From: Antedon mediterranea
Taxonomy: Eukaryota; Animalia; Echinodermata
Reading direction: 5' to 3'
NCBI RefSeq assembly: GCF_964355755.1
Contig: NC_092670.1
Coordinates: forward strand, 2,842,201 to 2,906,200
DNA: 64,000 nt
This document shows, one piece after another, positions 1,110 through 48,997 of the stretch (position 1 is the stretch's first letter; each line of letters opens with the position of its first letter). The notes under the pieces are model-generated. The model saw nothing but the letters and a program-made list of their open reading frames with translations. It had not been told where the DNA came from and searched no databases. The position numbers and the translations under genes are program-made.

Positions 1110-1127
1110 TGGTGGAAGACCCGGGCA
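1110..1127 (+). promoter_or_regulatory. Primer-binding site, probably tRNA-Ala
   Basis: TGGTGGAAGACCCGGGCA directly after the LTR. Its reverse complement ends TCCACCA, like tRNA-Ala 3' ends. Confidence 0.7.
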
Positions 1128-3558: not shown

Positions 3559-3935
3559 ATGGAAGGACAACAGCAACAACGACAGCTACCGCAACCTCCA
3601 GCACAACCCCAGCACCAGGAACAACCTGTGGTGCCCGCTTCTGACGCAGCAACCGTCAACAGGCCAATTTCTTCTCTAGCATTGAAACTGCTTCCATACT
3701 GGCCCAATGATACGATATTGTGGTTCACCCAAGTCGAAGCACAGTTCACAATGCGTGGGATCACAGCAGATGCTACTAAATATGCTTACTTAGTAGGATC
3801 ATCGCAACCTGAAATTGCGCAGGGAGTTCGGGATCTATTTCTCACCCCGCCTACTGATAACAGGTATGTGAACTTCAAAGATACTTTAATACGTCGGACA
3901 ACTGCTTCCGACCAACAGCGCCTCCGCCAACTCTT
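3559..3935 (+). pseudogene. gag: N-terminal gag of element B, truncated by internal deletion
   Basis: ORF 3559-3966 is gag-like up to QRLRQL, then the sequence switches to RNase H ([23 protein letters not shown]) in another frame. Confidence 0.85.
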
Positions 3936-5278: not shown

Positions 5279-5333
<55 letters not shown>

Positions 5334-10215: not shown

Positions 10216-13200
10216 ATTAATTCTTCAGGACACGCATGTATCACACCATTAGGCGACAGGTGTGCAGCTATCCGAAATTTGCCAGTCCCACGAACCCATA
10301 AAGAAACTAAACGATTTATTGGTGCAGTAAATTATATATCCCATTTTTTCCCTCAAATACAATCAATTTTACGTCCGTTACACACACTCGCAAGCAAACG
10401 CCGAAAATGTTGTTGGTCTACTGAACACCAGAAAGCATTTGACGAAATTAAACAATTAATGGTTAAACCACCAACTCTTCAAATGCCTAGAAAAGAAGGT
10501 AGATTTACGCTATATAGCGACACTTCAAGAACCGCAACAGGTTCATATTTAACACAAACAGTAAACGGTAAAGAACACATAATAGGTTATTATTCCAAAA
10601 TCTTACCAAAAGCCTGTCAACGATATAGCGTCACAGAATTAGAGTTATTTGGACTTTACATTAACGTTTCAGCATTTCGACATTTACAAAAGGGTTGCGA
10701 ATTTGATGCATTCGTAGACCACTCAGCAATTGTACAAATTTGGAATTCAAAAGATCAGCCATGTACACCCCGTTTACAGAAACTAATATTACGATTGTCC
10801 GGATACATTTTCCAAATTGGTTATAAGAAAGGAACTGAATTAGTTTTAGCAGATTTTCTCTCCCGAGCCCCTCGTGATGACGATTCCGAAATTGATCAAG
10901 TTGTACCCATTGCATTTAATATTACAGAGACTGAATCTCTTAACCCGATTACAAACACATTTACTAGCAGACCAGTAACAAGGTCATACGCCAAGAAAAT
11001 GGGAATAAATATACCTGACCTACATAAACCCAAACCCAAACAAACGCCTGTCATTAATCAAAACCCAGTGACAACAAACACGCGACCTACACCTCAACCT
11101 TCCACTACACCACAGATAATCACGAGACAACAAACAAACGCACATCGATCACCGCCTATCATAACGCCACCTATCGTAACACCACCCCCAATACGTAATG
11201 TAAACATTCGACAACCTCCAGAGGAACGACTAGTAGACAAAAACAAGCAAAGCAAAGATACTACACATCGAAACGTACCTGTTGAATTGTATACATCGCC
11301 CAAACCACTAGTACCAAACATAACTGAATTTAAGTCAGCACACATCCCAAAACAACAAGACTTAGATAGATTAATGGATGTTATTCAAAGAAAGATAATT
11401 AGAGATTATAACCTCCCAGTAGATGTTAAACAATTACGCGTTGAACAAGAAACTTCACCATTTTTTAAGCCAGTTTACGATTATTTAGTTCATGATATCC
11501 TTCCAGCTGATAAGAAAGCAGCTCGTGCAGTTCAGAATAAGTCAGAGCAGTACATATTGTGCAACGGTTTACTATTCCGTTTATTTTTCCAAGATAAAGG
11601 TGGAGAATTTGTATTAAAATTAGCTGTTCCTGAAAACTTAGCAGAGACTGTTATTTCTCAGTATCACGACAATTTGTTAAGTAGCCACCAAGGTACGATG
11701 CGTACTAATTACCTTACTATTAGGAAATTATTTTACATGCCTCTTATGTTCGAGAAAGTCAACAATTATACCCAAGCGTGTCTTAGATGTCAACAATTTC
11801 GTCCCAAAACCGATAAATTACGTCCTTTACACGATCGAGTACCAGCAACTTACCGTCCCTTTCATACACTCAGTCTAGATTTTAAGAGTATGCCAACATC
11901 ACCTTCAGGTTTTAAACATATTATGGTAGTATGTGATGAGATAACTAGATTTTTGATTTGTGTACCTTTGAAATCCATTGATGCCGAAACAATTTGTGAA
12001 GCACTAATTCAAAAGGTCATCAGTATTTTCGGACCCCCATCTCGTCTTATTTCAGATGCAGCAACCTCCCTTACAGGAAAATTATTAACACTATTATGTA
12101 ACACCCTTAATATTGATAGGAAAATCATCAGCGTCCACAATCACGGTAGTTTACAAGTTGAACGTCATATCCGCACCGTATCGGACCTGTTAAAGGTCAA
12201 CCTTAACCAATTCGGAACAGATTGGGTTAGATTTGTATCAACAACATGTTATGTTTATAACTCGTTTTCATCCCCACATCTAGGAAACCACTCCCCTTAC
12301 GAATTAGTTTTTGGCCGCCAACCTCCAAGTTTGACCTCATTAGCATTTAACCCTATTTCAGGATTGTCTCATTCCTATGAAGAATACTTTGAACATCTCA
12401 AGAAGAAATTTCAAAACATTTCACAGACAATGCTACAATTACAGCGAACACAACAAAACGTCCAAAACTCAAAGATATCCCAACGCTTACAAAAAGTCCA
12501 ATTTACTCAGTAGGACAACTCGTATATTTATACAAGCCAACATCATCATCACTAACGGCAAATTCAAAGAAAATCGCCGCAGAATGGGTCGGACCATTAG
12601 TGATTCATGAAGTACTAGACAGAACACACTACATCCTAGCGACGATTAAAGGAGAAATACTTCGCGACGTATTCAATTATAACAGACTGAAACCCTGTTT
12701 TATGAGAACACCCAAAGAACGCAAAAATTTTACACATCTACAAAAACTTAAACAATTGTTGAATGAACCAACTGATGATAATAACGATAAAATCCAAAAC
12801 ACCATTAATGTAGTAAATGACGAAATCAATGTTGAATTTGTAGACGAACATGATAGGACACCAGCCCAATTGCAATCAGATACCCTTACACATCCAACTA
12901 AGATAGAACCCCTTAACTTGCAACCTTACATTGACTGTGTAGAGAATAACATGGGATTAGCAGCCCCATTCCAAATGAATGATTCAAATATGACATTAAA
13001 CCGAGGTAGATTTAAAGCAGGACATTTCCAAGTTTTAGTTTCGTATTCTAAACCGACTTCAGCCAAACACAACACTGATAAAGCAAAACAAGAATCTAAT
13101 GATCGCAAATTTTGGTGGAATATTGACAGATATAACGATACAGATAAATTAATTAAAGAGATCATTAATGATAAACAGATACCGATAAGTGGATCGCCAA

Positions 13201-14104
13201 AACGATTCATAAAACGTTTGTATAATGCAACGAATTACTGATTTAATTTTTTTGCAAGATTATTTTTAAATTACGACAATTGCTAAATTATTGATAGCAT
13301 AGTCTACGTATTTGATGAGATTTGTTTAGTAATGATGTGATTTCAGTTAAAAGAGAATTGAATTTATGTTTAAGTATTGATTTGTAACGAGTTTTTTTTA
13401 TAAAGATTAATTTTGAATTTTGATGATCGATATATTGAGATATTGAAAAGAACGACAATCATTTTGTAACAAATATTTTGTTTAACCTTTGAGTCGTTAA
13501 TCTCAAGCATTAATTAATTGATATACAATAACAGGAGATTTTTTTAGTACTTTTAATTGTAATTTTTTTTGACATTGAGTACAAAAGTCGAATTTGTCGA
13601 CCGATTGAAATCGTATTTACCTGTAAATATAAATGCTTAAATCGATAAAGTTGTGATGATAACGATATATTGTGAATAAGTTTGTGTCAACGGGACACAC
13701 ACATTTGTTTCTTTTAAAGTTTTAAGTGATTAAGTTTGATATTTTGATTTTAGGCTGATCAGCCACAGTTTCTTGAGTTTTATGTTTTGATTTGATTTGA
13801 TTTATGTTTGAAGACCATTAGAACGCGATGAGTGTATGTTCAATGTAACATACTATTTTTAAGTTTTGTATTTTATTTTTAACTGATTTATGTTTGATTT
13901 ACGCGAATTTTATACCAAATTCATTTTTAATTTAATTTTTTTAAGAGAGAGAAGAGAGAGAGTGAAAGTGATAAGGTTACACTTCAGAGTCAATGGTTTT
14001 GGCTAACTCAATTTTGCATATATGTATAATAATGTTTTTTTTCTTTTATATAACTTTAATTTTGCATGCCACTATTATAACCATTTTTATATTTTAAATA
14101 GATT

Positions 14105-14128
14105 AAAAAAAAAAGGGAAACAGAGGGA
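14105..14128 (+). promoter_or_regulatory. Polypurine tract of element A
   Basis: AAAAAAAAAAGGGAAACAGAGGGA abutting the 3' LTR. Confidence 0.88.
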
Positions 14129-14740
14129 TGTAATATAACGATATACTGTTATATTTAAGAAATCGACCTTTGTATCGGAATTTAAATAGGTTCACAAACT
14201 TGACCCAGAAAGTCCAGAGGAGAGTTTGTCCAGATGTTTTTAATGACCATTTAGTTTATTATAGAATCCCTAAAGAAAACACTTAGCTTAATTTTGTGAC
14301 TTTCCCATCGTTAAACCAGGAGTGATTGACACTATTTAAGTACAGATTTGACAGTGTCATCCATCACAGAAATACCTTATTATACCGTTAATCACTCCCA
14401 CTTAAACACCCCTGGATCAACTTAGGACCAATCGTTACCCTCACAGATTATGTAATTGACATATGCTAATGAACTGAGCCAATATACTCCCAAGTTTCAG
14501 AAGGGCCCAGACACACCTTACAGCCATTTCACGGAGTACACACCTCACAGCCACTTCTTCAGAAGCAGACCTACACACTTCACACCTCACTGACAGCATC
14601 ATTGATCGTCCGTTCCTTATCTATACTTATAGTTGTATATTGTACTGAAGTATTATACTGAATAAACAATATATGTGTTACGACAGTCAAGCGAGTTAGA
14701 GTCTTTCATTAGTACCTCAACAACGCAACATTATATTACA
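14129..14740 (+). repeat. 3' LTR of element A
   Basis: Direct repeat of 498-1109. Confidence 0.97.
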
Positions 14741-14897: not shown

Positions 14898-17800
14898 TTT
14901 CTGTATTGCTTGATGGTCCAGCTTCACTTCTTGATTGTTCTAATTTTAGTACAGTATTACAACATCCGTTTTGATGAATATAAAATTATAAAGCCTTTTA
15001 TCAATAATATAATTTGTTTCCCTAAAACCATTCTACTACAGACCTATATCAAGTTATTTTTTGGATTTTTGCTGTATTTATGAATGAGCTTATACTGCTT
15101 TTTTTACCTTTTAATGTTGTCAATGCCTCCACTTCTTTCATCATCTTTCTATCTGTAAGCAGTCTAATGAATTTGTCCATCTTCTCTCCTTTTGCAAGTT
15201 TGCCTTTCATTTCCAGTTTCAAGATTAACCAAAACGGATCTGTGTCTTTGTTGACCCCCTTAATGCCTTTAAGGCGGCCAATAGTTACCATGTTCTCTGT
15301 ATTCAATTGCTGACCAAACGCTATCAATTTTCTTCGATGCTCTGAAAAATGTCTGAATGGAACGGATTTGAAGTTTGGTAATTTCACAATTTTCGTAATC
15401 ACGTCTTGAACTCCCTGAAGTCCGCATATATTAGTAGCTTCAATGAGGATACCGATGTCTGCCGGTTTGAGAAGTCCAGGACCCTCAAGTAGACCAAGCA
15501 GATGATATGGTGTACTTTCACTCTTTATTTTTTTCAAAGTAATGTTTGTATCACGATTCGTGAACTCGCTAAGTAACACTCTCAGCATGTGAATGTTTCC
15601 ACGTTTCTTCCACCAAGTAGATACATCAGTGAGCAGTTCATTGTAATCGTCATCATTCAATTCTAACAATAGTAATAATACAAGTTATTAATAATAATAT
15701 CATTATGTGTTAAAGAGTCAAAACTGTACCATATAAAATGTGGATTTATTGATTTTATATTCTAATATTCTTTTTTGTTATGTATATAGTATGTCTTTTT
15801 TTTTGCTAAGGATTGATATTTGACATTTATTTATTTGTTCTTTCTTTAAACTGAAATATACTTTCAATTCAAATTTACTGATTTACAAAGTGGTTCAGTG
15901 AATACACCATATAGTAAGAAATATAAAAATTAAAAAGAAAAAGGCGGATGAATGTAAGAAAAAGTTAGGTATATATAATATATATTTCCCTAAGTGAAGA
16001 TTTGGAAGTAGTAAAGGACTTATTATGAAGTTCAAATTGTAATCGTTATCATTCGAATCTAATAATTAAAGAATACGATTTATTAATAATAATATCATTA
16101 CGTGTTAAAGAGTCAAAACTGTACCATATAATAATAATTTATTGATTTTATATTTATTCTGACATTCTATTAAGGAATTTGACCTTATTGATTAAAAAGT
16201 ATTTTAACAAAATAGGGAAAAGTGACAACCAACTAAACTACTACCAAAAGTTAAGACTGAAAGAGCAAAGATATTCACCACCAACTTCTGAGTTTTCAAC
16301 CAATGGTAGGAAATCTTTATTTATTTTTTCGGTGCTCACTTTTCCATTTTAATTGTTTTACATATTTGGATGTTTTTTTTTATGTAATAAAATATTCTGA
16401 CTGCCGAGGATTGCAATTTCGGCGTGAATCAGTGGAGCGGGATGTGGAAGCTGAAGGAGAGCAAAATGTGGATGACCGAAAAACATGCGCATCATCCACA
16501 GTTCGTAACTCTTCTAAGAGAGAGAGAGTTTAAAGCCTTAGAATTCTTCAGTTTCATTGACGCTGGTGTTCGAGTGCGGAGCTCAGTGCCATACCTTTGC
16601 TTAACCAACTTAGGAAGGCCTTTGTGGATGAGAGAGAGCCAGGTAAGAACTACCAAATTTTCCAACGAGGGCGAGTTCTTCGTCCTCCTGTGTTTGGGCA
16701 TCATGGTGGGAAATGCCCCCGTCTTGACGTAGTAAATTATCATGGACGAAAGCAACTAAGCGCTGATAGAGATCTTCCGGCCGTTCATTATCTTGTAAAT
16801 GTATATCAGCAAAATCAATAAAATGGGCGCCGGTTGACTGGAATCCATAATGAAGTTGGATAGTTTTGCCAAATTTGTGAAAAAGTGAGGAGGAGCTTTT
16901 AACAATGGTATTCCGGGAAATTATAGGGCAAAAATTAGCGATCTGACCGAGCATGAGTTCAAGGATAGTGAGTTTTTGTTGGGCGGTATGACGACGTGCA
17001 ACAGGTACCTCATCATTGTCGTGAGTTAAGCCGCGAAGGGGAGATGCCCTGGTTTTGGGACGCCAAATTGAACCATCTAGGAGAAATGGGGTTGGTAAGT
17101 ATACACTTTTAGATATGCAAGTTAGGCCGAATACTCAATAAAACTCAATGGACACACTGATCGAGACTGATTCCGTCTCGATATCTATTTATCCCTTTCT
17201 CTCTAGAGGGCAGTATCACATTGCTGCGATATTACATCCCTCTCCACCTTGTTTAGTCTCTATAAATTATTTGATTTAAAAGGTATTTGTTTTGCAAGTA
17301 CTAAAATGCTGAGATAAAAGGATTACTCAAGTACATAAAACGTAATCCTGTTGTGGTGTAGCCAATTTGCCTAAATTAGAAAACGATTAAAAATTGACAA
17401 CTAAAACATTTGTTTCCTTTATCTACAGTAGTAGCTACATTAGATCAACTTTCGTATGCACTTAGAGGTCCAGAGAATTTGACTTCAGAAATTGGTTTAG
17501 AATGGTCAAACAATCATTTTTGGCTTGGTTACACATTTTGAAAATGTGGCAAAAGGTCAGGGTGAAAGGTTTAATACCAAACACCAATAGGTCCTTAAAC
17601 CTCGACAACCACTGGTCACAGCAAGGTAATTTTGGTCTCAAATTGATCAGAAGGTATACAATTATATTTAGTCTAATGGGACATTTTAGTGAAAAATTAC
17701 CGAAAATGCCATTTCTGACCTTTGACCCATTCCCCATGTATGTATCTCCGTAACTAAACTGTTTGTAGACACTTAAATTGCAATATACATATTATTTGTT

Positions 17801-20800: not shown

Positions 20801-22136
20801 ACTCATCTGAAAATGTTATTTGTGTTAAACTGTTCTCGATGCAATACAAAAACGAATTAAGAGACATTTACTATAATTTCTTTACTCATTTTGATCTTGA
20901 GAATGGTTCCATGATGGTTCCGAAACGTCGCTCTTTTTGAAACACTATAAACTAGTATTTTATAGCACGTCAGAACCGTAATTCAGGCTAGAATCCTAGA
21001 TCCCCTAATCACGATATCATCACCACTGTTATGATCGTCCAATGTTAATCGTAAAAAATATCAAAGAATTTAGATTTGAATCGAACATATTCGATGACAA
21101 ATAGAGACGCCCATGCCAAAGGTGAGCTGTGATAGAGTGGAAAAAACGTCTATTTTTATTTATCTACTGTTTGACCTGATAAATAAATAATAAGAATAGA
21201 TTAATATTTTACCTCATGACAAGTCTATCATTCGAATCATAAATTCAGACCATTTATCCATTTCATTGATAAAAATACAATTCCAATGTTTCCATTTCAG
21301 AAATATTCACATTAAACATTAGTAATTATTATAATTAAGAAGATTATAAAACGTTGGAAGCCAGTCAGTCAATGTGAAAACTATACAAACAATTTTTTTA
21401 AGTTGTTTTATTTGTTTGTTACATTATTTAGGTACTTCTATTCGGAAAAAATGTGGATTTCACTATTTTCATAGTTTTCCTCAAATAAACATGGTTTTGC
21501 AAATTTTGTCCTACAACATACCATTAGTCAGGCATTCCACATTTGAGTGTAGTCCAATTTTGTTAAGACTGGTAATAAATTCTTCAATTTTGTCTTCACA
21601 AAGTATTTGTCTGTGTTCAAAATCCAAAATCATACTCCAAGCATCTTGGTATTTCTTTAGCGCAGTACCATTGTACAGTGCATCAATGTTTTCTACATCA
21701 GCCTGTGTAAGTCCATTTCCGAAATCTAAAATCCAGTGTCGATATGGAGTGAACGTTGTAATTTTGATTTCTTGATCTTCGAAGAAAGATTGTGGGAAAA
21801 CTTTCATTACTTCAAATGTTTGAGTTACTTTGATTGTTTCGTAAAGTAACGAAGGCTTGTCTGAACTCAAATACCCTGATGTAATTAAGTGATACAGTAA
21901 GTCTATTGTTTTCTTGGCTTTGTCTATGTTCGCTACTGTAATTAAATCGTGGTATAACACTTTCAGCTGTCGAAAGAGGTTGTGGTCATCATACCATCCT
22001 GAAACGTTCACTAAATTCACACTAAAATCTATAAAATTATTTAAAAGAGAACATTTTAAAGAAATTTAATTTGAAATGTTGGTGGTATGCAAGATGAAAT
22101 CAGTTATTTTCAATCTTTAACATTACCTGTTGCCAT
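14898..22136 (-). CDS. Spliced host gene with two tandem death-effector-domain (DED-DED)-like exons; 3' part not identified in the window. Exons 22136-22127, 22028-21522, 20434-20372, 15662-15108, 14939-14898
   Basis: All introns are GT-AG and phase 1, giving one open frame [16 protein letters not shown].... The two large exons are paralogous helical modules (W..L.VL..DL..L...G.L....L.E..; F..R..L..FG..LT...W..IL..E) that resemble tandem DEDs. Confidence 0.72.
16420..17236 (-). mobile_element. Decayed LTR-retrotransposon fragment (gag-like sequence plus LTR-like end)
   Basis: Frameshifted ORFs [40 protein letters not shown] and [17 protein letters not shown] resemble gag-like ORFs of marine-invertebrate retroelements (recognised from memory). 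TGTAATATCG preceded by a purine tract at 17236-17250. Confidence 0.6.
17520..18010. repeat. Diverged direct repeat (about 290-bp period) rich in GGTCA/TGACC motifs, unclassified
   Basis: 17520-17735 aligns by eye with 17800-18010. Confidence 0.6.
18515..18856 (-). repeat. One arm of the GGACAACTACCCC foldback family with an inserted 20-bp tandem array
   Basis: (GGGGGTAGTTGTCC)n ending CCGGATACG, the reverse complement of the 33401 terminus. About 7 copies of ACAAAATTCATTCTGTGTAG at 18616-18757. Confidence 0.85.
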
Positions 22137-23505: not shown

Positions 23506-24771
23506 ATTACTGGCGTCCAGATTGCAAGTAATTTACCGTTTTTTTACAAGAATTGTTTTAACAGTGCACAAGTGAAGTTTCTTTGAAATGTTCATACAAA
23601 AATATAATTGTTTTGCCTATAGTAAGTCTAGAAGGAAGTTTTCTACTGACTAGGAAACTATTGTGAATGACTCTTTACAATCAGTAATAAATTGTATTAG
23701 TACCATGGTGGTACAAGACACCATTTGTCTATTGATACGAACCTTATACAAAAGTAGTTATCTTAGATATGATCAGTGACATAACAATACAAACAATAAC
23801 TCATAATCCAGTCTAGAAATAGCAAATTTCGATTTAGAATTTGAAAGAAAGCGTACCTCTCACTTCTACATCTATTTGTTTCGATTTAGGTGGTATGTGC
23901 TTTTTTACTTTCATGACAAAAGCCTACGGTACAGAAACACACATACCCTCGTACACATTTATATGTACACCACATGGGCTATTTCACTATTAGTTAATTC
24001 TGAAACGTCTGCCTGATTAGGTCTGTTTTTATTTAACAACAAAGTGAGAGGCGGCATTGTCTGGCATTACTGCCAACCTTGCTGACCCTCATTCCTCTAT
24101 TATATCCGTCACAGAGCTCGTTTACCGAAACTGATTAATACACCTTAGTATCATGCCATGGTCGTCTAACAAAACCCCATTTCAGACACACCTCACAAAT
24201 ATAACCCACTATCAAAGAATACTACAACAGAACATGTTTACAACCATTCACATTAATAACTCATTTATTTATATAGCATAACTTCAAACATGCTCGTACA
24301 TTAGTCAAAATGTTGAATAATTCAGTCATGGTGTACCACGACCACCAGCCAAAATGACAAATTAGTTTAATATATACCATGTTTACACGACAGCATGTGA
24401 TATGTTCCACCCAATAAGTTTGTGTTTAGCAGCCGATAAACCATCCTCCGACCTATGATCAAAACTGACATACATTGTGTATCGTCAGCGTATTATATAT
24501 GTGATAAGCTACATCAAAACGCTTAATAATAATATCAGCGATAGGTTGATCATACACAGTGAAAATAAGAGGTTCAACCATAGACCCCTCAGAGGAACAC
24601 CGTACTGGAAAATATGGTTTCTAGAGTATTCACCAAGTTCACAAACTCTAATATAACGGTCTTGATGGTAGCTAGTTACCCAATGTAAACAGAGCCAGTA
24701 ATACCAAATTCCCTCTACAAATGACTGACAAGGATGTCGTGATCTATCGTGCCAAATTCAGAGGACAAATC

Positions 24772-27700
24772 TGTAACTGCAGCCTACTTACAGGAGGCCC
24801 TCTAGAGTTCAGATAGATAAAAAGTGATAAGAGAGAATAAGACATTTTTTTATGACATAAAGTTTAGAGATAATCATTGTTAAAAGTATCTTTACCATAG
24901 GCTCCAATAAGGCTACAAGTTTTCACGGTGTTTATTCAAGTTGCTAATGATACTGTAATTTGTAGAGATACAAGAGATAGTTCAGAGAATAAATAAAGGA
25001 ACATCAGTATCTACAAAATTTGTAATTTATTTATGATGGACGCCTACGGTAACAGTGAAAACTTAGCTGATGGAAACTCAATGAATCTAAGAGAACAGAG
25101 TGAGAGACGCCCTACAGATAAGGACCTGTCAATAAGCATTGCTACTGAAGTAAAACTGTTGAGTCAAACTCAGAGAAAGGCTCAAGAAGCATCAAGTGAA
25201 CTAGAAGATGTTCCAAGCGACGTATTTGAGATACAAACTGCATTATGCAAAGCTAAAGCTGCATTAAAGGAATATAGTGATGCTTATGGTGCGTATTGAA
25301 TAAATTGTATGCACAAGATAGAGATGGTATTCATCGCAAAGATCACCTGGAGAATGAGAACATATATCTCACCATTGCCAACTCCATCAAAGCTAGTATA
25401 ACAAGTGCTATGGATAAGGCACATGCATTAGCCCTTGAGTGTCAAGCCTCAAAATCTGCAGCATCAAAGAGTTCATGTCGATCTATTGTTAGCATTAAAG
25501 CTCAAGCCGTGGCGAATGCTGCTGCAGCCAACAAAACTGCTCAATTTGCTGAAAAAATGGCTAAACAGAAAGCAGACCTTACAGCAAAAGAAGCTGAAAT
25601 GGAAATTAAGAAAGCAGAAGCAAGGCTTGAAGAAATAAGGCGGGAAGCACAGCAAAGAACAGAACATGCCAAAGCTGAAGCAGAGTTCAAAGTTTTAGAG
25701 GCTAAACAAGCTGCAGCTGTAGAGAATGCACGAGTTGATGCAATTCAACAGGAAATTCAGAACGGATATCGAGAAATTATGACCACACCACACCAAACCT
25801 CAAATGATCATGCACTAAGGTTTCGCAACCTAACCAAACCTCAACCTCTAATGACACAGACACAAGCAACAACAGCCCAACCGACAATGCCTCAAAATCA
25901 ATCTAGCAGTACCACAGACTTAAACGCTTTAGCAGAAGCTTTTTCTTCAGCCTTCAGTATGAACCGCATACCAGCACCAGAGCCACCAATATTCGATGGC
26001 GATCCTCTTAAGTACTATGATTGGAACGCATCCTTTAGATGTTTAATCGAAAATAAAGGAATTTCTAAAGCAGACAGAATTCACTACCTTAAGAGATACA
26101 TAGGAGGCCCAGCAAAGGAAGTTGTCAGTGGATACCTTCTGCTACAAGGTGAACATGCTTATGAAAACGCTAAAGCAGTTTTAGAAAAAAGATATGGAAA
26201 TCCATTTATAGTTTCCGAAGCATTTAGAGACAAATTAGACAGCTGGCCAAGGATTCAAGCAAGAGATTACAATGGCCTTAGGCGACTCTCTGACTTTCTG
26301 AACCAATGCAACATAGCAATGAAGGAAATGAAAGGCTTGGAAGTTCTTAATGACAGCAGAGAAAATCGGAAAATTCTTCAAAAATTACCAGATTGGTTAG
26401 TGAATAGATGGCGAAGAAACGCAGTGAGCGCTATGCAAATCAAGGGTAGTTATCCAACATTCAATGACTTTTCCACATTTTTGACGACCGAAGCTGAAAT
26501 TGTTTGCGATCCTGTTACCTTAATACCAGAAAATGAAACAAAATTCACAGAAAAAAGTTCAAGATATCGAAACCAATCTCAAACGCTAGCCACCAGTATC
26601 AGTGGAATGCCATCATGCTTCATGTGTAAAATGAATAACCATCACCTAAGTGACTGCAGAGCGTTTGCCAGAAAACCTGAAACCAAAAAACAGCAATACA
26701 TCAAGCAAAATGGTCTATGCTTCAGCTGCTTACAACATGGCCATGTGTCAAGGAACTGTAACCAGAAAAGTATTTGTAAAATTTGCCAAAGGAGACATCC
26801 AACAAGTCTACATGTAAACGAGAGAGATTCAGCTCACGAGATGACTGAAGCACAAATGCAGGTTATCAAGTTACAAGAGACTGTCACTAAGAAAGAGACA
26901 CTATTGCAGGATTTAGCCACAAAGTATGCTAAGAAAAATGATGAGTTAGCAGAAATTAAAGAAGAAAGAGATCTGGTTAAAAGGAAATCAGATGACGAAC
27001 TTGCTTATATGAACAAACAACTTCAACAGGCTGTAGCGTCTAATCCACCTAACATTAGTGAACAATTGGCTTTACTACATGCAGAACTTGATGAGACTTA
27101 TGGACGACAAATTGTTATGATTAAGTCATAGCTGCAGGAAAGACACCAGAATGAAATGCAAGAATTGCAAAAGAAATGTGAAGAAGATGCTGAAACTAAT
27201 AACAAAATTAGAGATGCATTAGAACAGAATTTAAAGGAACTCCAAGACCAATTAGATGAGAAAGAGATGGACTTAGAGGCTTGTCAGAACATCCAAAAAG
27301 ACTTCGAAGATCAAGTTGCACTTCTTAATAATCACAACAAGGAACTAACAGAGAAAATGGAAAAAAAGAAGATGTAAATTTGCAACTTCATCGAGAGCTT
27401 GATGAAGCTAACCAAGAAATGCAGAAGAAAACTTCAGAGTTAGATGAAAGAGTTACCCAGTTTATTGATGAAAAAGAAAGATTGGAAAATGAATATCGGA
27501 AAAGGTTTGAAGATGAAAGTGCCCATCAAGAAGATATCCATCGCATTGCATTAAACCAACAGCGTTCTGAAGTTGTTGCTGAAATTGATCGCAAAATGAA
27601 ACCCAAAGTAGAAGAAGTTGAAGACCATTTCAAGGTTCAATTCTGTACTGAAAAATCGGACAAAGAGAACGAATTTGTTCAAGAATTCCAGAACATTCGA

Positions 27701-28373
27701 CAGCAGTTAGCAGAATCTCATGCAGAAGAGATTGAAGCTGTTACAAAGAAAATCACAGATGAATTAACTGAAAAGCATGAGATTATGCTAGAGGAGGAAA
27801 CGAAAAAGCTCTTCAAAGGAATAAATGATATATCTGAAGAGAAGGTATCGACGGAGCAGAATCGGAATAAAGATTGGATTGAAAATCAAGGAAAAGAATT
27901 AAAGGAACAAATTGTAAATATAAAAGTCGAGCTTCAACAAGTGAACGAAAAGAATTCAAAAATACAAACTGTTAACTTATTCTTTATAGTTTTGGTAAAT
28001 ATTGTTAATATACTTCCAGTTTTGCATTACTTGTGTTTATTCTGGCAAGGGTGGGAGTTAAGGTTAAATCATAGATGATTTGGGTGGGAGTGTAACTGCA
28101 GCCTACTTACAGGAGGCCCTCTAGAGTTCAGATAGATAAAAAGTGATAAGAGAGAATAAGACATTTTGTTATGACATAAAGTTTAGAGATAATCATTGTT
28201 AAAAGTATCTTTACCATAGGCTCCAATAAGGCTACAAGTTTTCACGGTGTTTATTCAAGTTGCTAATGATACTGTAATCTGTAGAGATACAAGAGATAGT
28301 TCAGAGAATAAATAAAGGAACATCAGTATCTACAAAATTTGTAATTTATTTATGATGGACGCCTACGGTAACA
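24772..28373 (+). mobile_element. Non-autonomous BEL/Pao LTR retrotransposon carrying captured coiled-coil sequence
   Basis: 283-bp LTRs 24772-25054 and 28091-28373 (TGTAAC...GTAACA, 2 mismatches seen). 5-bp TSD AAATC. PPT GGGTGGGAG. BEL-type gag; no pol. Confidence 0.95.
25081..28078 (+). pseudogene. BEL gag fused in frame to an AKAP9/pericentrin-like coiled-coil fragment
   Basis: Gag: PEPPIFDGDPLKYYDW, LEKRYGNP, three Cys/His knuckles ending CQRRHPTSLH (about 26813). Then about 380 aa of E/K/Q heptads including LHAELDETYGRQIVMIKS*LQERH. Lesions: frameshift near 25290, TAG at 27129-27131, frameshift in an A-run near 27365. Confidence 0.85.
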
Positions 28374-28607
28374 AAATCTACCAAAACTAGTATTGTTGGT
28401 ATTATCTATTAGGCCTCCCAATAGCTCTTTTAACCATTTCATAAACAACATAAACGTGCACCCAGTAAGCCTAAACAAGATGGAAAACCGAGAGTAATCC
28501 ATGCAAGATTACTTCGTTATCAAGACAAGGTAAACATCCTAAGAAAAGTGAGGAGTTGAAAAAGTCGTAGTTCGAGTAGTTACTTCAAATTCGATTAAAA
28601 AACGAAG

Positions 28608-32029: not shown

Positions 32030-34930
32030 AAAATAATAAGTCTCCTTATGGTACTGATATTCTGCCTATAGAATTTTATAAAATGTTTTGGAATGTTGTT
32101 AGGTATGTTTAATGCAATCAATTTCATATTCCCAACATACAGGTATGTTATCTCAACGAAGAGGAGTTATATCTTTATTACCAAAAGGAGAAAAAAATCC
32201 AACAGAGTTAAAAAATTGGCGTCCAATAATATCGCTACTAAACGTAGACTACAAAAATATAGCAAAACTAATTGCTACACGAATGAAAGAAACGTTGGGG
32301 CAAATATAATAAACCTGGACCAAACGTTTTTTTTTTAAATCGCTACATAGAGAAAATATTCGTCTTGTATTAGATGAAAAAAAAAACGCTATAGAAAAAC
32401 ATTTTTAAATGTTTTTCTTTAGCGTTTTTTTTTAAATAATTTGTTATTATTTGTTGATTTCAAAAAGGCCTTCGATAAGATTAAGTTTGTTAAAGAATTC
32501 CTCGACAAATTTGGTTTGGAGAAATGATAAAAAAAACTGGTTTAAATTAATGTTGTATACTGATATTTCAAGCTGTGTAGTTAATAATGGCTTTACCTCG
32601 AATTATTTAACCATCGAGGGGACTACGACAGTGTTGCCCTTATTTCCATATTTATTTATTTATTGCGGCAGAATTGCTTGAGATATCAGTGAAACAAAAT
32701 AAACACTTTAAAGGTATTACCATTACAAATACTGATAAGAATAAATCAACTAGCAGATGATACTGTGTGTTCTTCTTGCAGGATGAATATTTACTGAATA
32801 CAGCAATAGAAATTCTTGATAACTGCTACATTTTCTGGTCTAAATGACAACTTTGATAGAAGTAATATTTTAAGACTAGGCACTTTTACCAATACCAATT
32901 TTAAAATTGTACCAAGAATTTGTTTTGGACAGATGGGCCAATCAAATACCTCGGAGTATATGTTTCGGGGAACGCTAATCAACTTGTTACACTTAACTTT
33001 GAAAATAAATTGGATCGAATAAAAAGCGTTCTCAACATGTGAAAACTAAGAGGTTTATCTTTGATTAGAAAAGTATTAATAATCAAGTCTTTGGCATTAC
33101 CAATTTTATCATATAATTCAATTTCAAATTTACCAACACCTGATGTAGAATATATTAACAAACTACAAAATGTGTTCTTTGATTTTCTTTGGGATGGAAA
33201 ACAAAACAAGGGCGGTTTAAAAATGTCACATATTTCGAGTTACATCCATTCTCTTAAATTGTGTTGGATAAAACGGTACCTGGATGATGGGGATGCAAAA
33301 TGGAAAGTTTTTTTAACCATAGAGTTTGAGGCCATTTGTGAGAAAAACATATTCTCCTCTGCTTACAAAATTATCCACATTTTATAGAGATGTACTGCTA
33401 CGTATCCGGATATTCACTCCCTGGACATTTACCCCCCGGAAAACTACCCCCGGACAACCACCATCTGGACAACTACCCCCTTAGGACAACTACCCCTTTA
33501 GGACAACTACCCCCCGGACAAATAACCCCCGGACAATTACCCCCCCCCCGGACAATTATCCCCCGGACAATTACTCCCCCCCAGGTAATTACCCCCCGGA
33601 CAAATACCCCCCGGACAACTACCCCCTTAGGACAACAACCCCCTTAGGACAACTACCCCCTGGACAACTACCCCCCGGACAATTACCCCCTAGGAACAAT
33701 TACCCCCCGGACAATTACCACCCGGACAATTACCCCCCCCCCCGGGTAATTACCCCGCGGACAACTACCTCTGACACAATACTCCCCGTAGGACAACTAC
33801 CTCCTGAACCTGGACAATACTCCGAGGGCAAATAATCATTTAGGACAACTACCTCCGTAGGACAACTCCCCTGGACAACTACCTCCCGAACAATTACCCC
33901 CTAGGAACAATTACCCCCTGACAATTACCCCCGGACAATTTCCCCCCCCCCCGGGTAATTACCCCGCGGACAACTACCTCTGACACAATACTCCCCGTAG
34001 GACAACTACCTCCTGGACCTGGACAATACTCCGAGGGCAAATAATCTTTTAGGACAACTACCTCCGTAGGACAACTAACCCCTGGACAACTACCACCCAG
34101 ACAACTATCCCTTTAGAACAACTACCCCCCGGACGGACAACTACCACCCAGACCATTCAACAACCTGACTCTGCAACAGTGTATAATAGGAATTAATAAC
34201 TATATTTTAATTCGTTACTTTGAGGAATTACTATTCATTATTGTAAACAAAAGTAAAAGATTGAACATAAATATAGTCCTAAGGGAGGGGGTAGATGTCT
34301 GGGGGGGGGGTAGTTGTCCAGGGGGTAGTTGACCGGGGGGTAGTTACCCGGGGGGTAGTTATCCTAAGGGGGTGGTTGTCCTAAGGGGGTTGTTGTCCGG
34401 GGGGTAGTTGTCCGGGGGGTTGTTATCCTAAGGGGGTAGTTGTCCTAAGGGGGTAGTTGTCCGGGGAGTAGTTGTCCGGGGGGTAGTTGTCCTAAGGGGG
34501 TAGTTGTCCGGGTGGTAAACATCCGGGGGTAACTGTCTAGGGGGTAGGTGTCCTAGAACCGTACTGCTAGCCTGGAGTGTATACCATTATTCACTAAATC
34601 CAGATACTGCAAATGAAATATAATTGTCAGGTACTTTACAATTGCTGTTTCGTTAAAAGAACTTTTAATATTCAAAACTTGTGGTGGAATGCAGGTATCC
34701 GTACAATTAAAGATGTAACTAATTCCAAAGGATCTTTCCTCTCGCAGAATGATCTTGAAACAAAGTATGGAATTGAAAGTAATTAAAATTTCGTTTGTAT
34801 GGTGCGATTCTGCATTATCCCAATGAACTGGAAGGTAATTCTCAATGAAAACTAAGAAATACTTAATAAAGCTGATATTTATTGTCATGAAACTGTATTT
34901 AAAATTAAAAGAACATGTAATAATTGTATA
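32030..34930 (+). pseudogene. Decayed L1/Tx1-clade LINE ORF2, interrupted by a foldback element
   Basis: KSPYGTDILPIEFYKMFW; GVISLLPKG..LKNWRPI.SLLNVDYK; RGLSL.RKVLIIKSL; FFDFLWDGK..GGLKM. Many frameshifts. Confidence 0.85.
33401..34561. mobile_element. Foldback-like DNA element with minisatellite arms
   Basis: Left arm (GGACAACTACCCCC)n, right arm (GGGGGTAGTTGTCC)n, AT-rich spacer. Flanking direct repeat (G)TACTGCTA, an 8-9 bp TSD. Confidence 0.88.
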
Positions 34931-35041
34931 GTATATCACACTATTGTAGCAAATATTACAAACGACATCAATGAAGTAAATTTGAAATGGTCAAACATGG
35001 GCAATTTTGATTTACAAGACTCCATAAGCTACACATTGATG

Positions 35042-35250
35042 AACAAGGCCAACAGCCATAAGTCGCGTGCTCTCAGAAAAAAATGAACTTTCAAAAAGTA
35101 ATGTACTTTAAAACTTTTCTGTATATCAAAACAGTTCAAAAAGTACAGAAAAGCGATAAAACGCATTAATGATACCGGACCGACAGACAGACCGACAGAC
35201 CGACCGACCGACATAGTGAACTATTGAGTCGCGTCCACGCGACTAAAAAT
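35042..35250 (+). mobile_element. Short HINE/Helitron-like element (second copy 37975-38167)
   Basis: AACAAG start, (GACC/GACA)n microsatellite, 3' hairpin AGTCGCGT-CC-ACGCGACT followed by an A-run. Confidence 0.65.
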
Positions 35251-36562
35251 TAATCAGTAAATATTGTTGAACTTTTAAAGCTGCCTTATATAAAGCTGTA
35301 AAACAAATAATATTTGGAGCATAAATTTGTTTCATTTTTTCTTTTACAATTACCACACTTCCGATTTACCGGTACTAGAAAGATTTGTTTATTAGATAAA
35401 AAGATCCGTAACAATGAGAGGCCTGTTATTGTACTTTGTACTTCCTTATATTATTCATATTGGAGCAATAATACACTGTGCTATTTAAAACTTAAAGATA
35501 GAAAACAAGCACCACCAGTTTCTGTATCACTGTTTGTTATTCACGATTTCATTATTTTTTCTCAAGGTGTGTAGGCCTAAAGCAGAACAATGAATGCTTG
35601 CTTTATCAAACTTCCAGTTTGCTTGTAAGCCTTACCAGATCGATTTATTTGTTACGAAAAATATCGATAATAATGTTCTTGTACTTTTTATAACTTTATG
35701 TTTATGAATATTGTTACTAGCAAGAATACATTGTGGTTTATATAAGTTTAGAATAGATAAACCAGCACTACAAGTTGTTGTATAATTTGCAGCTGTATAG
35801 CAATTATCAATCACAACTGAATACTAGTTTTAATGTACAAGATTAACTTATTTATAACAAACTGTCGCGACACAACGACATTTCTTGATTTTAAGCTAAA
35901 TAGACAGGCATCATTAATTCTTCCCAACGATTTAAAGTAGCACTAAAGAGCAGAATTATTTTTATTTATTAATTACAACATAACGTACTCCTAGGTAACT
36001 AAAATATAACGAATGTCAATTTCAGAAAGGGATCTGACCCTTCAGCTAATAACAAGCACAGTCTGTAATCGAAGCTTAAATAGGGTTTCAAGCCAATTTT
36101 AACGTAAAACAGACTATTGATACTTACTTTATCCATATACGTCGAGTTTTTGGTAATTTACTGTATGGGATGCAAATCCCACTAATGGGAAATTTGTAAA
36201 CAAACAACTGTTAGAAAACTTCAGTTTTGACGGCTGCACACGAACTTTGGAAAGAAACTGTCACTGACAACAAATCCAACAAATTATTCAGAAAATTAGG
36301 TGACCTGTGACATCTTAAACATATAAGGAACTGATCTTACCATATATGGTTAATTTTACGCCTATTAATGTTTATTAAACAGCTATAAAATGACGTAGCT
36401 TATACTTTATACTAATGTTTTCGCGCGAAACGTTGACGCTTCTGTGCCGAGAGAGGGCTTCTAAAATTTATGACGTCATGCGAAGTCGAAAATTCAGCGA
36501 TAACGGTCATATTTCCCAACGCGGCTCTCCGACTGTTAAATAATCACTAAACTCAGTTACAG

Positions 36563-36604
36563 CAGGGAAGAGTTAAATTACAATTGTAATTTAACTCTTC
36601 CCTG
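36563..36604. repeat. 42-bp perfect palindrome with 7-bp TSD (P-like TIR remnant); copy at 39479-39520
   Basis: GTTACAG|CAGGGAAGAGTTAAATTACAATTGTAATTTAACTCTTCCCTG|GTTACAG. Confidence 0.85.
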
Positions 36605-39600
36605 GTTACAGCATTATTTCAACTTTATTATAATATGACTAAAAACAAACGTGCTGGATAATAATTATCTAACACCTATGCTTATATTTTAAAGTTGTAT
36701 TGTCCCCCAAAACATGAAAAATAAAGATGAGAAAAATCAAATTTTGAATAGACCGTTTTGTAGTTATAATAAAGTTATTCACTTTCGCCGAAAAAAAATC
36801 AGAAAAAAATATTGATTTCGCTTATAAAAAATCAAAATAAGTTTACCATTTTTTCGAACTCATAAGCTCAGAAATTCCTAAATAACGATGGTTAGCTAAC
36901 AACTCATAAATATGCATGATATGTTAATGAGCATCCAAACAGGGGAGATCCGATCTGTTATCTTCACCACATAAACAAGCATGTGCGACGAACCATGGAT
37001 TAAAGAATAGAAGGGTATGCATCGACGGTGACATCAAATGATTTTATAACGCGCTTGCCTATACTAAAGCACTGCTGCCAATCAAACAAACACGCTCATT
37101 GAACTCTGTGTCTCTAACCGCGGCCCTCTGTAGAACGCTGCGAATCAACTGTTACATTTTTTTAGACCACAAAAGTAAAAGATTGAACATAAATATAGTC
37201 CTAAGGGAGGGGTAGATGTCTGGGGTGGGGGTAGTTGTCCAGGGGGTAGTTGACCGGGGGTAGTTACCCGGGGGGTAGTTATCCTAAGGGGGTAGTTGTC
37301 CTAAGGGGGTTGTTGTCCGGGGGGTAGTTGTCCGGGGGGTTGTTATCCTAAGGGGGTAGTTGTCCTAAGGGGGTAGTTGTCCGGGGAGTAGTTGTCCGGG
37401 GGGTAGTTGTCCTAAGGGGGTAGTTGTCCGGGTGGTAAACATCCGGGGGTAACTGTCTAGGGGGTAGGTGTCCTAGAACCGTACTGCTAGCCTGGAGTGT
37501 ATACCATTATTCACTAAATCCAGATACTGCAAATGAAATATAATTGTCAGGTACTTTACAATTGCTGTTTCGTTAAAAGAACTTTTAATATTCAAAACTT
37601 GTGGTGGAATGCAGGTATCCGTACAATTAAAGATGTAACTAATTCCAAAGGATCTTTCCTCTCGCAGAATGATCTTGAAACAAAGTATGGAATTGAAAGT
37701 AATTAAAATTTCGTTTGTATGGTGCGATTCTGCATTATCCCAATGAACTGGAAGGTAATTCTCAATGAAAACTAAGAAATACTTAAAAAAGCTGATATTT
37801 ATTGTCATAAAACTGTATTTAAAATTAAAAGAACATGTAATAATTGTATAGTATATCACACTATTGTAGCAAATGTTACAAACGACATCAATGAAGTAAA
37901 TTTGAAATGGTCAAACATGGGCAATTTTGATTTACAAGACTCCTTTTTGTTACTCCATAAGCTACACATTGATGAACAAGGCCAACAGCCATAAGTCGCG
38001 TGCTCTCAGAAAAAAATGAACTTTCAAAAAGTAATGTACTTTAAAACTTTTCTGTATATCAAAACAGTTCAAAAAGTACAGAAAAGCGATAAAACGCATA
38101 GTGATACCGGACCGACAGACAGACCGACATAGTGAACTATTGAGTCGCGTCCACGCGACTAAAAATTAATCAGTAAATATTGTTGAACTTTTAAAGCTGC
38201 CTTATATAAAGCTGTAAAACAAATAATATTTGGAGCATAAATTTGTTTCATTTTTTCTTTTACAATTACCACACTTCCGATTTACCGGTACTAGAAAGAT
38301 TTGTTTATTAGATAAAAAGATCCGTAACAATGAGAGGCCTGTTATTGTACTTTGTACTTCCTTATATTATTCATATTGGAGCAATAATACACTGTGCTAT
38401 TTAAAACTTAAAGATAGAAAACAAGCACCACCAGTTTCTGTATCACTGTTTGTTATTCACGATTTCATTATTTTTTCTCAAGGTGTGTAGGCCTAAAGCA
38501 GAACAATGAATGCTTGCTTTATCAAACTTCCAGTTTGCTTGTAAGCCTTACCAGATCGATTTATTTGTTACGAAAAATATCGATAATAATGTTCTTGTAC
38601 TTTTTATAACTTTATGTTTATGAATATTGTTACTAGCAAGAATACATTGTGGTTTATATAAGTTTAGAATAGATAAACCAGCACTACAAGTTGTTGTATA
38701 ATTTGCAGCTGTATAGCAATTATCAATCACAACTGAATACTAGTTTTAATGTACAAGATTAACTTATTTATAACAAACTGTCGCGACACAACGACATTTC
38801 TTGATTTTAAGCTAAATAGACAGGCATCATTAATTCTTCCCAACGATTTAAAGTAGCACTAAAGAGCAGAATTATTTTTATTTATTAATTACAACATAAC
38901 GTACTCCTAGGTAACTAAAATATAACGAATGTCAATTCCAGGAAGGGATCTGACCCTTCAGCTAATAACAAGCACAGTCTGTAATCGAAGCTTAAATAGG
39001 GTTTCAAGCCAATTTTAACGTAAAACAGACTATTGATACTTACTTTATCCATATACGTCGAGTTTTTGGTAATTCACTGTATGGGATGCAAATCCCACTA
39101 ATGGGAAATTTGTAAACAAACAACTGTTAGAAAACTTCAGTTTTGACGGCTGCACACGAACTTTGGAAAGAAACTGTCACTGACAACAAATCCAACAAAT
39201 TATTCAGAAAATTAGGTGACCTGTGACATCTTAAACATATAAGGAACTGATCTTACCATATATGGTTAATTTTACGCCTATTAATGTTTATTAAACAGCT
39301 ATAAAATGACGTAGCCTATACTTTATACTAATGTTTTCGCGCGAAACGTTGACGCTTCTGTGCCGAGAGAGGGCTTCTAAAATTTATGACGTCATGCGAA
39401 GTCGAAAATTCAGCGATAACGGTCATATTTCCCAACGCGGCTCTCCGACTGTTAAATAATCACTAAACTCAGTTACAGCAGGGAAGAGTTAAATTACAAT
39501 TGTAATTTAACTCTTCCCTGGTTACAGCATTATTTCAACTTTATTATAATATGACTAAAAACAAACGTGCTGGATAATAATTATCTAACACCTATGCTTA

Positions 39601-39909
39601 TATTTTAAAGTTGTATTGTCCCCCAAAACATGAAAAATAAAGATGAGAAAAATCAAATTTTGAATAGACCGTTTTGTAGTTATAATAAAGTTATTCACTT
39701 TCGCCGAAAAAAAATCCGAAAAAAATATTGATTTCGCTTATAAAAAATCAAAATAAGCTTACCATTTTTTCGAACTCATAAGCTCAGAAATTCCTAAATA
39801 ACGATGGTTAGCTAACAACTCATAAATATGCATGATATGTTAATGAGCATCCAAACAGGGGAGATCCGATCTGTTATCTTCACCACATAAACAAGCATGT
39901 GCGACGAAC

Positions 39910-41543
39910 CATGGATTAAAGAATAGAAGGGTATGCATCGACGGTGACATCAAATGATTTTATAACGCGCTTGCCTATACTAAAGCACTGCTGCCAATCA
40001 AACAAACACGCTCATTGAACTCCGTGTCTCTAACCGCGGCCCTCTGTAGAACGCTGCGAATCAACTGTTACATTTTTTTAGACCAAAACGTAACCATGTA
40101 GAAATCGTATGCGAAGTCTGAATGTTCTATTGACATGTCTGCGTCGATGATTAATTGACAACAAAAATATATTGCTGAACAATTCTGTTTTAGTTTCATC
40201 ACAATCGGACTACGAAAAGTTCACTTTCTTACGACTGGTAATTTTAAGTAGTTGGTAATATTAATAAAATATGCAATTTTTATATTTGAATTATTATTAT
40301 TTGCCTGCCATCTTCTGTCATTAAAATTGCGTTAATCTATAGAATATTAAATTATGCATTTGACCATGTATGATGTTAGCGTGGCCGGTGTTCACACATA
40401 CAACAATCGTGTTTTTAATATATGGCTAAGCAGTGGTTTCTTCATAAATCTCCTTAATTATCGATGTGATTATATTTAAATTGTAGTGCCTGGTGATTGG
40501 CTAATGGTTATGTCATCCACATCACATCCAATCACCGGGCCTAATTGAATGAAAACAGCGATCCCAGATCCGGGATTGGCTGGCTATGTATAGTTGCGAT
40601 ACGTTACCTAGCGGTCGTTTTGAAAAGTAAACGCAGGGCAAACTTAATCACGAACAAACGAAGTACCTATTATTATTCACACAAGAAGTAAGACAACGGT
40701 GAGTATATAGATCATGATTACGCATTGTATCTACTACACTTAAGATTAGCCTAGGCCTACCTAGGCAGTATCAATGTCGGCAAATCATATGGTTTACTAG
40801 TAAGCCTAGAAGGCCTACTATCCTTGCTGATTTTGTAATTTTACATGTAGGCGCGCTGAGACAACAACTAGTTATTGTCTCATAAAATGCTACTTTAATG
40901 TCATAAAAACATTAGCGTAGATCAATCGCGGCAGAAACCTATACTAATTACAATTATAGCATCTACAATTCTAAGCCAATAACAATATAGTATTGTTTTT
41001 ATCTGGTATATTGATGAAGTAGACCTACACTAGGGTCTTCACAATAACATACAATGTAATTTAATAACTGTTTTCAATAAACATTATACTCAGTGGCGTG
41101 AGGCAGAGGCCTGAAGCCACTTGTTTAGGAAACCTAAGTGGCCCTCCAAGTTTCAAAGATCGAGGCCTCGGACGTTTTTAGCATTTTCGACATATTTTAT
41201 GCCTGTTCCTCTGGGCACTGCTCATGGGCCCCAAGCTTCAGGGCCCCTGGGTTTAGCCAGTGAGCGCACATAGCCGTTACGCCACTGATTATACTGTTCA
41301 AATATGTATTGTTGCTAGCGCTAAAAACATCATGCCACCAAAGAACGCGCGAAAGAAGCGTAGCCAACAAGGTTAAATGTCGTTGCACATGTACAGTAAA
41401 CAATATATTGGGCACGCGACCGTTTCGATGTTACCATGCGGTTAATTAAACTGTAACATTGTGGGCGGTTCGCGGTCTGTCGGCGAGAGTCAAGGAACCC
41501 TTGATCTCACGTCGATGCATATCCATCTATTCTTTAATCCATG
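39910..41543. mobile_element. P-superfamily-like non-autonomous element inside the Kolobok
   Basis: TIR of about 40 bp CATGGATTAAAGAATAGA / TCTATTCTTTAATCCATG. 7-bp TSD GACGAAC. Empty site visible in the paralogue near 63938-63944. Confidence 0.85.
41091..41287. mobile_element. hAT MITE nested in the P-like element
   Basis: CAGTGGCGT / ACGCCACTG termini. 8-bp TSD ATTATACT. Confidence 0.9.
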
Positions 41544-48445: not shown

Positions 48446-48997
48446 TAATGTTTTTATCTTATACACAAATTGTTATATCTCGTTTTCATTTCCCAAAGAA
48501 CAGATTATGGTAGTATAGTCTCTGTATTGATTTCAGTAGTATAGTCTGTAATAATTATATAATCTTTATATTAAATAAAAACAAATCTCATTTGAAAGTT
48601 ACAAACCGATAGCATGCGTCCGATATTGAATGTTGTCAATTGCGATGTCACCCCTACGGTAAACTACTTTTCCCAATAGCCTTCAAACACAATGTAATTT
48701 TTTCCATAACCGTTGTGCGCAAATTGTGCTACTACGGCATTTCGCCACCGATCTCCTTGGTTACCACTTTTTTTCCATAACAGTTCGTCCCCCAAATCCG
48801 ATTTTCTGTAAACCGTGAGTGATCCAACTTCATGTCCGTACATGTGATAGTAGAATGATAAAGATACATGTTGCCCTGGTGGTAACAATTGACTTCTCAT
48901 GCGAGCTGACTTCTAGTTACTTGTAGATATTGTTTTAATGTAAACATAATGATCACCTGTACGTGGAAATAAACAAGCAGTTAGTAATTAAATTTAA

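Follow-up and report, generated by a model that had tools for sequence, protein, structure and literature searches.

A window of 64,000 nucleotides of the genome of the crinoid Antedon mediterranea (positions 2,842,201 to 2,906,200 of NC_092670.1) contains, at 24772-28373, a long terminal repeat (LTR) retrotransposon of the BEL/Pao superfamily in which the pol gene is replaced by an in-frame piece of a host gene. Sequence comparison confirmed that the 1,138 bp of the replacing segment (26827-27964) derive from a host gene of the AKAP9/pericentrin family. In intact copies the piece is 379 codons long and encodes an acidic coiled coil in the frame of gag. The history that we favor, with a probability of about 0.7, is that pol was exchanged for the host piece by two template switches, that the product spread with the enzymes of its parent, and that the host piece is mostly a tolerated passenger with a kept reading frame.

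The two LTRs are identical at 281 of 283 positions (2 mismatches) and have TG...CA ends. Both flanks of the element carry a 5-bp target-site duplication, and a purine tract stands immediately 5' of the 3' LTR. Contigs from four public runs, two of organism A (X1 and X5, the latter perhaps of RNA) and two of organism B (X8 and X10), were compared with the window; each of the two organism B runs includes a contig in which 24766 is followed directly by 28374, the empty site. The organism B runs leave parts of gag uncovered, a gap that was given no weight, and contig depth was not read as copy number. With an LTR difference of 0.7% this copy is young; it has decayed since its insertion. Its lesions are a stop (27129-27131) and two breaks of the frame, one near 25281-25299, the other near 27360. 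These are the one stop and two frameshifts listed in a preliminary description of this DNA, whose account of an intact LTR pair, a target-site duplication, a polypurine tract and a complete BEL gag also agrees with the LTR comparison, the duplication, the DUF1759 match and the three Cys-His boxes reported here. The features of the element, from 5' to 3', are as follows.

24767-24771, forward strand: 5' copy of the target-site duplication, 5 bp.
24772-25054, forward strand: 5' LTR, 283 bp, TG...CA, with AATAAA at 24988 and 24992.
24917-24926, forward strand: candidate transcript start and self-primer, a perfect reverse complement of the 10 bases 3' of the LTR; the function is suggested by likeness to Tf1.
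25033-26826, forward strand: complete gag of the BEL/Pao type; copies without lesions have about 598 codons, and this copy has a frame break near 25281-25299.
25055-25064, forward strand: primer-binding position, not tRNA-like, which pairs with 24917-24926.
25992-26423, forward strand: DUF1759 (PF03564) domain of Gag, E 7.8e-15.
26616-26813, forward strand: triple Cys-His box, fitting the Pao/BEL pattern of PMC554778.
26827-26828, forward strand: 5' junction of gag and host piece, in frame with both; judged from contig ends, about 2 nt are probably common to both sides.
26827-27964, forward strand: captured host AKAP9/pericentrin-like (PACT family) piece, N-terminal coiled coil; host contigs depart at both ends.
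27181-27182, forward strand: site at which the host gene has 18 nt (6 codons) that the element lacks (X5 minor contig, X8).
27891-27899, forward strand: direct repeat of 9 nt; 387 nt (129 codons) of the host gene are absent from the element at this point (X8 record 17, X1 record 5).
27959-27964, forward strand: 3' junction of host piece and element, 6 nt common to both sides, with loose ends before 27959 and behind 27964 (X1, X5).
27959-28078, forward strand: last codons of the parental pol, whose own stop at 27974-27976 is in a different frame, and 3' untranslated segment, read as a 37-residue tail; the stop of the fusion is at 28076-28078.
28082-28090, forward strand: polypurine tract.
28091-28373, forward strand: 3' LTR.
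28374-28378, forward strand: 3' copy of the target-site duplication.

The start codon of gag (25033) is located within the 5' LTR. The match of Gag to DUF1759 is better than the curated cut-off, and the protein is closed by three Cys-His boxes, the last of which ends at 26813. The triple box of Pao/BEL elements follows the pattern CX2CX3-4HX4C, CX2CX2-4HX4-5C and CX2-4CX3HX4H in the available portions of PMC554778. The protease, reverse transcriptase and integrase families had zero matches in the five stretches of the element that were scanned, as expected from the earlier statement that all three are gone. Because pol is absent, the element is classified as a non-autonomous BEL/Pao derivative and is not placed in a clade.

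The layout of an autonomous relative is seen in L001 (2781-6032), a contig of a metagenome collection and the sole long match among 7 of 99 candidates that matched; L002-L007, with 36 residues, were dropped. A scan of viral contigs gave three candidates and no relatives. L001 encodes Gag, protease and reverse transcriptase in one open frame, and its Gag is 40.5% identical to residues 310-598 of the element Gag. A short linker separates its last knuckle from protease and reverse transcriptase, all in the same frame. In X1 a contig of 4,339 nt with a pol-like end meets the element at 27959, and the frame of this end stops at 27974-27976. The 30 loose bases of this contig read PIHKL..., which we take to be the end motif of the BEL integrase. 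The pol-like end of the X1 contig and the layout of L001 therefore indicate that the host piece replaces pol from about 5 codons after the last knuckle to about the last 5 codons. The possibility that the coil is native to autonomous members of the family, raised in the preliminary description, does not hold, since L001 has protease and reverse transcriptase at that place and the pol-like contig joins at 27959.

The origin of the piece was traced at the protein and at the DNA level. A search of 1.84 billion representatives with the tail found five proteins, one encoded by the element family itself (P0002, see below) and four others, among them proteins of Lytechinus (E 3e-13) and of Apostichopus ("putative AKAP9", E 1e-12). 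A profile of the tail matches returned one protein among 2,747 candidates, the Saccoglossus AKAP9-like protein XP_006825094.1 of 4,778 aa. This protein carries PACT at 4554-4635, and two of its segments, residues 253-416 (E 9e-15) and residues 602-684, are matched by the tail. In phmmer the tail scores 40.6 bits against it, compared with maxima of 0.4 in 40 residue shuffles and 3.5 in 40 heptad-block shuffles. Similarity to AKAP9-like proteins, the absence of which would have spoken against capture, is thus found in a sea urchin, a sea cucumber and Saccoglossus. The original assignment to AKAP9 stands at the level of the AKAP9/pericentrin (PACT) family; AKAP9 is not separable from pericentrin, and the match is to an ambulacrarian PACT-family gene. 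Likewise, the same-frame coil of about 380 aa is upheld, and its bounds, given as 26815 to about 27960, are corrected to 26827-27964, after which the frame runs for 37 codons more. Protein searches with the tail returned no vertebrate AKAP9 or pericentrin, and sequence searches of the PDB gave no specific match. The best score of an Atlas feature search was 0.89; all its matches were below 0.9 and were unspecific, generic coiled coils. The Antedon donor protein was not found among candidates of 329-2000, 1776-5000 and 2796-5000 aa or in the 50% representatives, a negative of little weight; it may be longer than 5,000 aa or unannotated.

At the DNA level, contigs of all three runs compared track the tail and depart from it at 26827 and 27964 with identical flanking letters. 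Host contigs were seen in organism A (X1, X5) and in organism B (X8, X10), and their flanks keep the reading frame. Read by eye, these flanks extend the coiled-coil frame on both sides, and the fusion is therefore in frame with both gag and the donor. In organism B the piece belongs to a contig of 6,717 nt, and 60 differences were counted within the first 1,073 bases. The tallies of differences are 44 for X5, 62 for X8 and 9 for X1, 77 rows in total. Since about 31-33 of the sites are specific to organism B and no more than about 15 to X5, the capture is estimated to have taken place on the lineage of organism A after the split.

The 6 nt that host and parent have in common at the 3' junction are seen from both loose ends. 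Contigs of two studies span this junction (X1 record 4, X5 record 16); X1 may be the window's own source. The overlap of about 2 nt at the 5' junction is deduced from contig ends only. Contigs there (X1 record 2, X5 record 9) reach 30 letters into the host side, one below the bridging rule, so that the 5' junction rests on the window and three RefSeq proteins. Relative to its donor the element has lost 18 nt after 27181 and 387 nt at the 9-nt repeat 27891-27899, both multiples of three. Apart from these two gaps the host DNA is colinear with the element, and no exon junction is crossed. An intron at 27891-27899 was considered and is improbable, as the repeat, the part in view, offers no GT-AG ends.

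The fusion is present at several sites. One protein among 1,544 candidates was retrieved in a search with the tail, the A. mediterranea protein P0002 of 1,014 aa, which contains DUF1759. Its cluster comprises three RefSeq loci of A. mediterranea, on sequences of 31.7, 36.2 and 28.6 Mb; two have uninterrupted frames of 1,014 aa, which supply the lesion-free copy that had been sought, and one has a frame of 889 aa. The RefSeq copies are 95-98% identical to the three long pieces of the window copy and 92% identical to its short N-terminal piece. They have the same junctions as the window copy, yet are distinct from it. The concern that the junctions might lack support is answered by these three loci and by the contigs of two studies at the 3' junction. 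The three RefSeq loci and the window copy indicate that the element has retrotransposed to several sites.

The following course of events would account for this record. A host mRNA would have been packaged together with the element RNA, and reverse transcriptase would have switched to the host mRNA beyond gag and returned to the element RNA close to the end of pol. The product, in which both LTRs, the priming region and the purine tract were retained, could integrate and would then be recopied in trans with the enzymes of the autonomous parent. The junction overlaps of 6 and about 2 nt and the 9-nt repeat match the microsimilarity of LTR-mediated retrocopies in animals, which are described in the available portions of Tan et al. 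2016 (PMC5131818) as having a median microsimilarity of 6 bp, BEL/Pao carriers and repeated insertion. An open frame would be retained because the element depends on translation of its entire Gag and on an RNA free of a long untranslated end, whereas the amino-acid sequence of the tail would be under relaxed constraint. The fusion protein would be carried in particles, with the coiled coil at the usual place of Pol. Capture by template switching followed by mobilization in trans was also proposed in the preliminary description. Both steps are now well supported, but they are inferred, as is the reason for the open frame.

Several points weigh against this history. The identity of the parental pol depends on the 30 loose bases and their presumed motif, and the parent beyond 26828 is a reconstruction. 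The captured piece lies inside one long exon-like stretch, so an RNA template has to be postulated without the proof that intron loss gives. The substitution counts discussed below cover only 40 of the 77 difference rows. Three further observations suit a protein in use more than a mere passenger. The point estimates of dN/dS are below 1. The frame was kept through the 5' junction and through the 18-nt and 387-nt deletions; at random this has a chance of 1 in 27, a figure that would be higher with the codon periodicity of coiled coils and with RNA surveillance. Finally, a 2-nt difference from the parent lengthens the frame over the hydrophobic tail.

Some of these points would be explained if the tail were used, that is, if the AKAP9-type coil, with or without a hydrophobic membrane anchor, steered Gag particles to the Golgi-centrosome region or competed with the host scaffold. 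We regard this as possible but doubtful. It would account for the frame being kept through three events and for the almost exact exchange of Pol, although in-frame fusions are common in such chimeras: among 17 retrocopies, the frames of element and host are in frame in 6 of the 8 whose longest frame has a 5' element part (PMC5131818, available portions). Substitution classes, taken from the 40 listed rows, bear on the same question. The donors of both organisms agree against the element at 21 listed sites, 14 replacement and 7 silent, and dN/dS of the element lineage is 0.45-0.72 (transition weights 1-4), which is below 1 as a used tail predicts but not significantly so (P 0.07-0.31 against neutrality). 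At the nine listed sites specific to organism B (3 replacement, 6 silent), which compare the host gene between the organisms, dN/dS is 0.11-0.18. The remaining 10 listed rows, with differences common to most runs or peculiar to the element contigs of one run, were excluded. The constraint on the tail is thus relaxed relative to the host gene, and its substitution pattern is not significantly different from neutral. Among the protein copies, P0003 and P0004 have no differences in 379 host-derived residues and five in 473 Gag residues, as would suit a used tail, whereas P0002 and P0003 differ at 6 of 379 and 14 of 473 residues, without clear contrast.

The last 37 residues of the fusion, which come from the 3' segment of the element, contain a hydrophobic stretch that resembles a transmembrane segment (mean hydropathy 2.24 at 27968-28024). 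In the parent-like contig two additional bases follow 27985 and would terminate the frame of the hydrophobic tail early. The stretch was matched in 0.5% of 5,000 base shuffles, in favor of a selected anchor. However, 34% of the open-frame shuffles reach a hydropathy of 1.6 and 6% reach 2.24, so that T-rich untranslated DNA yields hydrophobic tails unaided. According to the available portions of bioRxiv 10.1101/2022.07.20.500724, proteins with hydrophobic tails of such origin are commonly degraded or targeted to membranes. The coil itself offers a parallel in human AKAP450, whose first coiled coil (aa 159-463) binds GM130, dimerizes, displaces the full protein from the Golgi and is dominant-negative (PMC3105543, available portions). 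The captured piece is positionally similar to it, as judged from Saccoglossus residues 253-416 and 602-684. The likeness is by position only, because no vertebrate AKAP9 or pericentrin was returned; moreover, the piece begins partway into the coiled coil, and the PACT centrosome-targeting domain is outside it. The more specific proposal, that the family uses the Gag-AKAP9 fusion with its newly gained, membrane-anchor-like tail to direct particles, in germ cells, to the Golgi-centrosome region or to disturb the host scaffold, and would thus be a virus-free counterpart of gag-onc, is speculative and rather unlikely.

It is very improbable that the host piece entered at the DNA level, by break repair or by gene conversion from a chromosomal exon, and that the product was then retrotransposed. 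The absence of a crossed exon junction would allow such an entry, and short junction overlaps arise in microhomology-mediated repair too, but additional deletions at short repeats are typical of reverse transcriptase. The sense orientation, the coding-only content, the internal replacement and the overlaps also conform to the template-switching pattern in the available portions of Tan et al. (PMC5131818). An assembly chimera, or a coiled-coil accessory frame native to the BEL family, to which chance matching among generic coiled coils and the unspecific Atlas scores might have pointed, is rejected as having a negligible probability on account of the piece's identity at the nucleotide level with a host locus that has separate flanks in both organisms, the three annotated loci, the shuffle controls and the ordinary gag-protease layout of L001.

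Capture of the AKAP9/pericentrin-family piece by template switching is not a new mechanism, because Tan et al. 2016 published it for animals, including BEL/Pao carriers and in-frame fusions. The statements on that work made here are limited to its available portions (PMC5131818). Its examples include CG17604_r, CG10212_r, CG33957_r, CG16728_r, a chimera of the Pao element BATUMI and the mosquito BEL18_AG retrocopy; in those portions echinoderms are not among the animals examined. As in these retrocopies, a partial host sequence replaces part of the element open reading frame (ORF), both LTRs are kept and the parental host locus is elsewhere. Junction microsimilarity, further rounds as a non-autonomous element, BEL/Pao carriers and in-frame ORF fusion are also common to both. 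CG17604_r ends in an out-of-frame 3' tail, as does the Antedon fusion, and CG33957_r, carried by BLASTOPIA, is an in-frame fusion of 125 aa of element, 248 aa of host and 97 aa of element sequence (Supplemental Table 12). The Antedon element differs in that it keeps the whole Gag of about 598 aa with three knuckles, compared with 36-125 aa and, in one case, 429 aa, and in that Pol is removed almost exactly. In addition its family is older, at a distance of about 2% from its host gene, and nevertheless two annotated loci out of three have uninterrupted frames. The combination of a whole Gag, a near-exact exchange of Pol, a frame kept through two later deletions and a hydrophobic tail is unusual. 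No earlier description of the Antedon element or of a fusion of a whole Gag to a host protein was found in the open-access literature searched.

Acute transforming retroviruses carry gag-onc fusions, have lost pol and need a helper. The Antedon element resembles them in that a host coding piece is joined to gag, pol is lost and a helper would be needed; since Gag is retained in full, particles would be expected to display the host coil, as with those viruses. In contrast to them it has no envelope and no known infection or transformation, is inherited through the germline, and carries a piece of a scaffold protein instead of a signaling oncogene. Maize Bs1 is likewise a non-autonomous LTR element with captured host coding pieces that was later amplified, but it is a plant element with pieces of three genes, whereas the animal BEL/Pao element of Antedon carries one (PMC5131818, available portions). 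With the autonomous BEL/Pao elements Sinbad (PMC554778, available portions) and L001 it shares a DUF1759 Gag, a triple Cys-His box, a single ORF, LTRs and a purine tract; it differs from them by the host coiled coil in place of protease, reverse transcriptase, RNase H and integrase.

The priming region of the element has features of its own. No tRNA-type primer site is present at the primer-binding position. Instead, 25055-25064 pairs perfectly over 10 nt with 24917-24926 of the LTR (P 0.0016, 20,000 LTR shuffles). The stability of the pairing has a z of -2.2, and 2 of 200 shuffles were equally stable. In organism B (X8, X10) the segment 24771-25055 has a diverged LTR relative, probably a solo LTR, whose flanks are unrelated on either side and which has about 190 additional bases at 24918. 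The contigs of organism A and this LTR relative also break at 24918. The two Gypsy elements of the window have no comparable LTR complement, the longest being 6 nt, and none adjacent to an LTR was found in L001, the 5' LTR of which is not identifiable. Self-priming is reported for Tf1/Sushi and for some plant elements in the available portions of PMC6317226, PMC3601003, PMC5443660 and PMC6934838. The Antedon element is like Tf1/Sushi in that it has no tRNA primer site and the bases after the LTR complement a stretch inside it. Tf1-type priming is described in PMC6317226 for Gypsy chromoviruses and some plant Copia elements, whereas the present case is a single BEL/Pao element. No report of self-priming in BEL/Pao was found in the literature search or in the available portions of PMC6238403. 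We consider the Antedon complement a candidate for Tf1-like self-priming, on the basis of one element and a presumed transcript start. If it holds across relatives, tRNA-free priming would be extended to BEL/Pao elements.

Other features of the window are briefly recorded here. A young element of the Gypsy type, with LTRs 99.8% identical, occupies 498-14740 and contains an antisense reverse transcriptase fragment (9233-10195) and a second LTR element (2995-7637, LTRs 98.9% identical), in which DUF7041, RNase H and integrase were matched and no reverse transcriptase was found. A 1.5-kb repeat within this nested element (5226-6737) recurs at 46.9-48.4 kb (91%), with more partial copies in 46879-50318. 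Open frames resembling death-effector-domain genes are found on the reverse strand at 21511-22065 (Pfam DED, E 6e-7, below the curated cut-off) and at 15049-15684 (no Pfam match). A tandem duplication of about 2.9 kb, 98.4% identical, spans 34247-40093 and is bordered by GC-rich inverted repeat arrays.

CG33957, the host gene of the BLASTOPIA-carried retrocopy, is presumably Plp, the PACT gene of the fly; the identity was looked for in four papers and was not confirmed there. If it is correct, the same gene family would have been captured in frame twice, in a fly and in a crinoid. The Antedon element provides an unusually complete record of a gene capture, with the donor gene, both junctions, a parent-like contig, the empty site, later deletions and several daughter copies. 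It makes testable whether captured host pieces are mere riders or are used by the selfish element that carries them.

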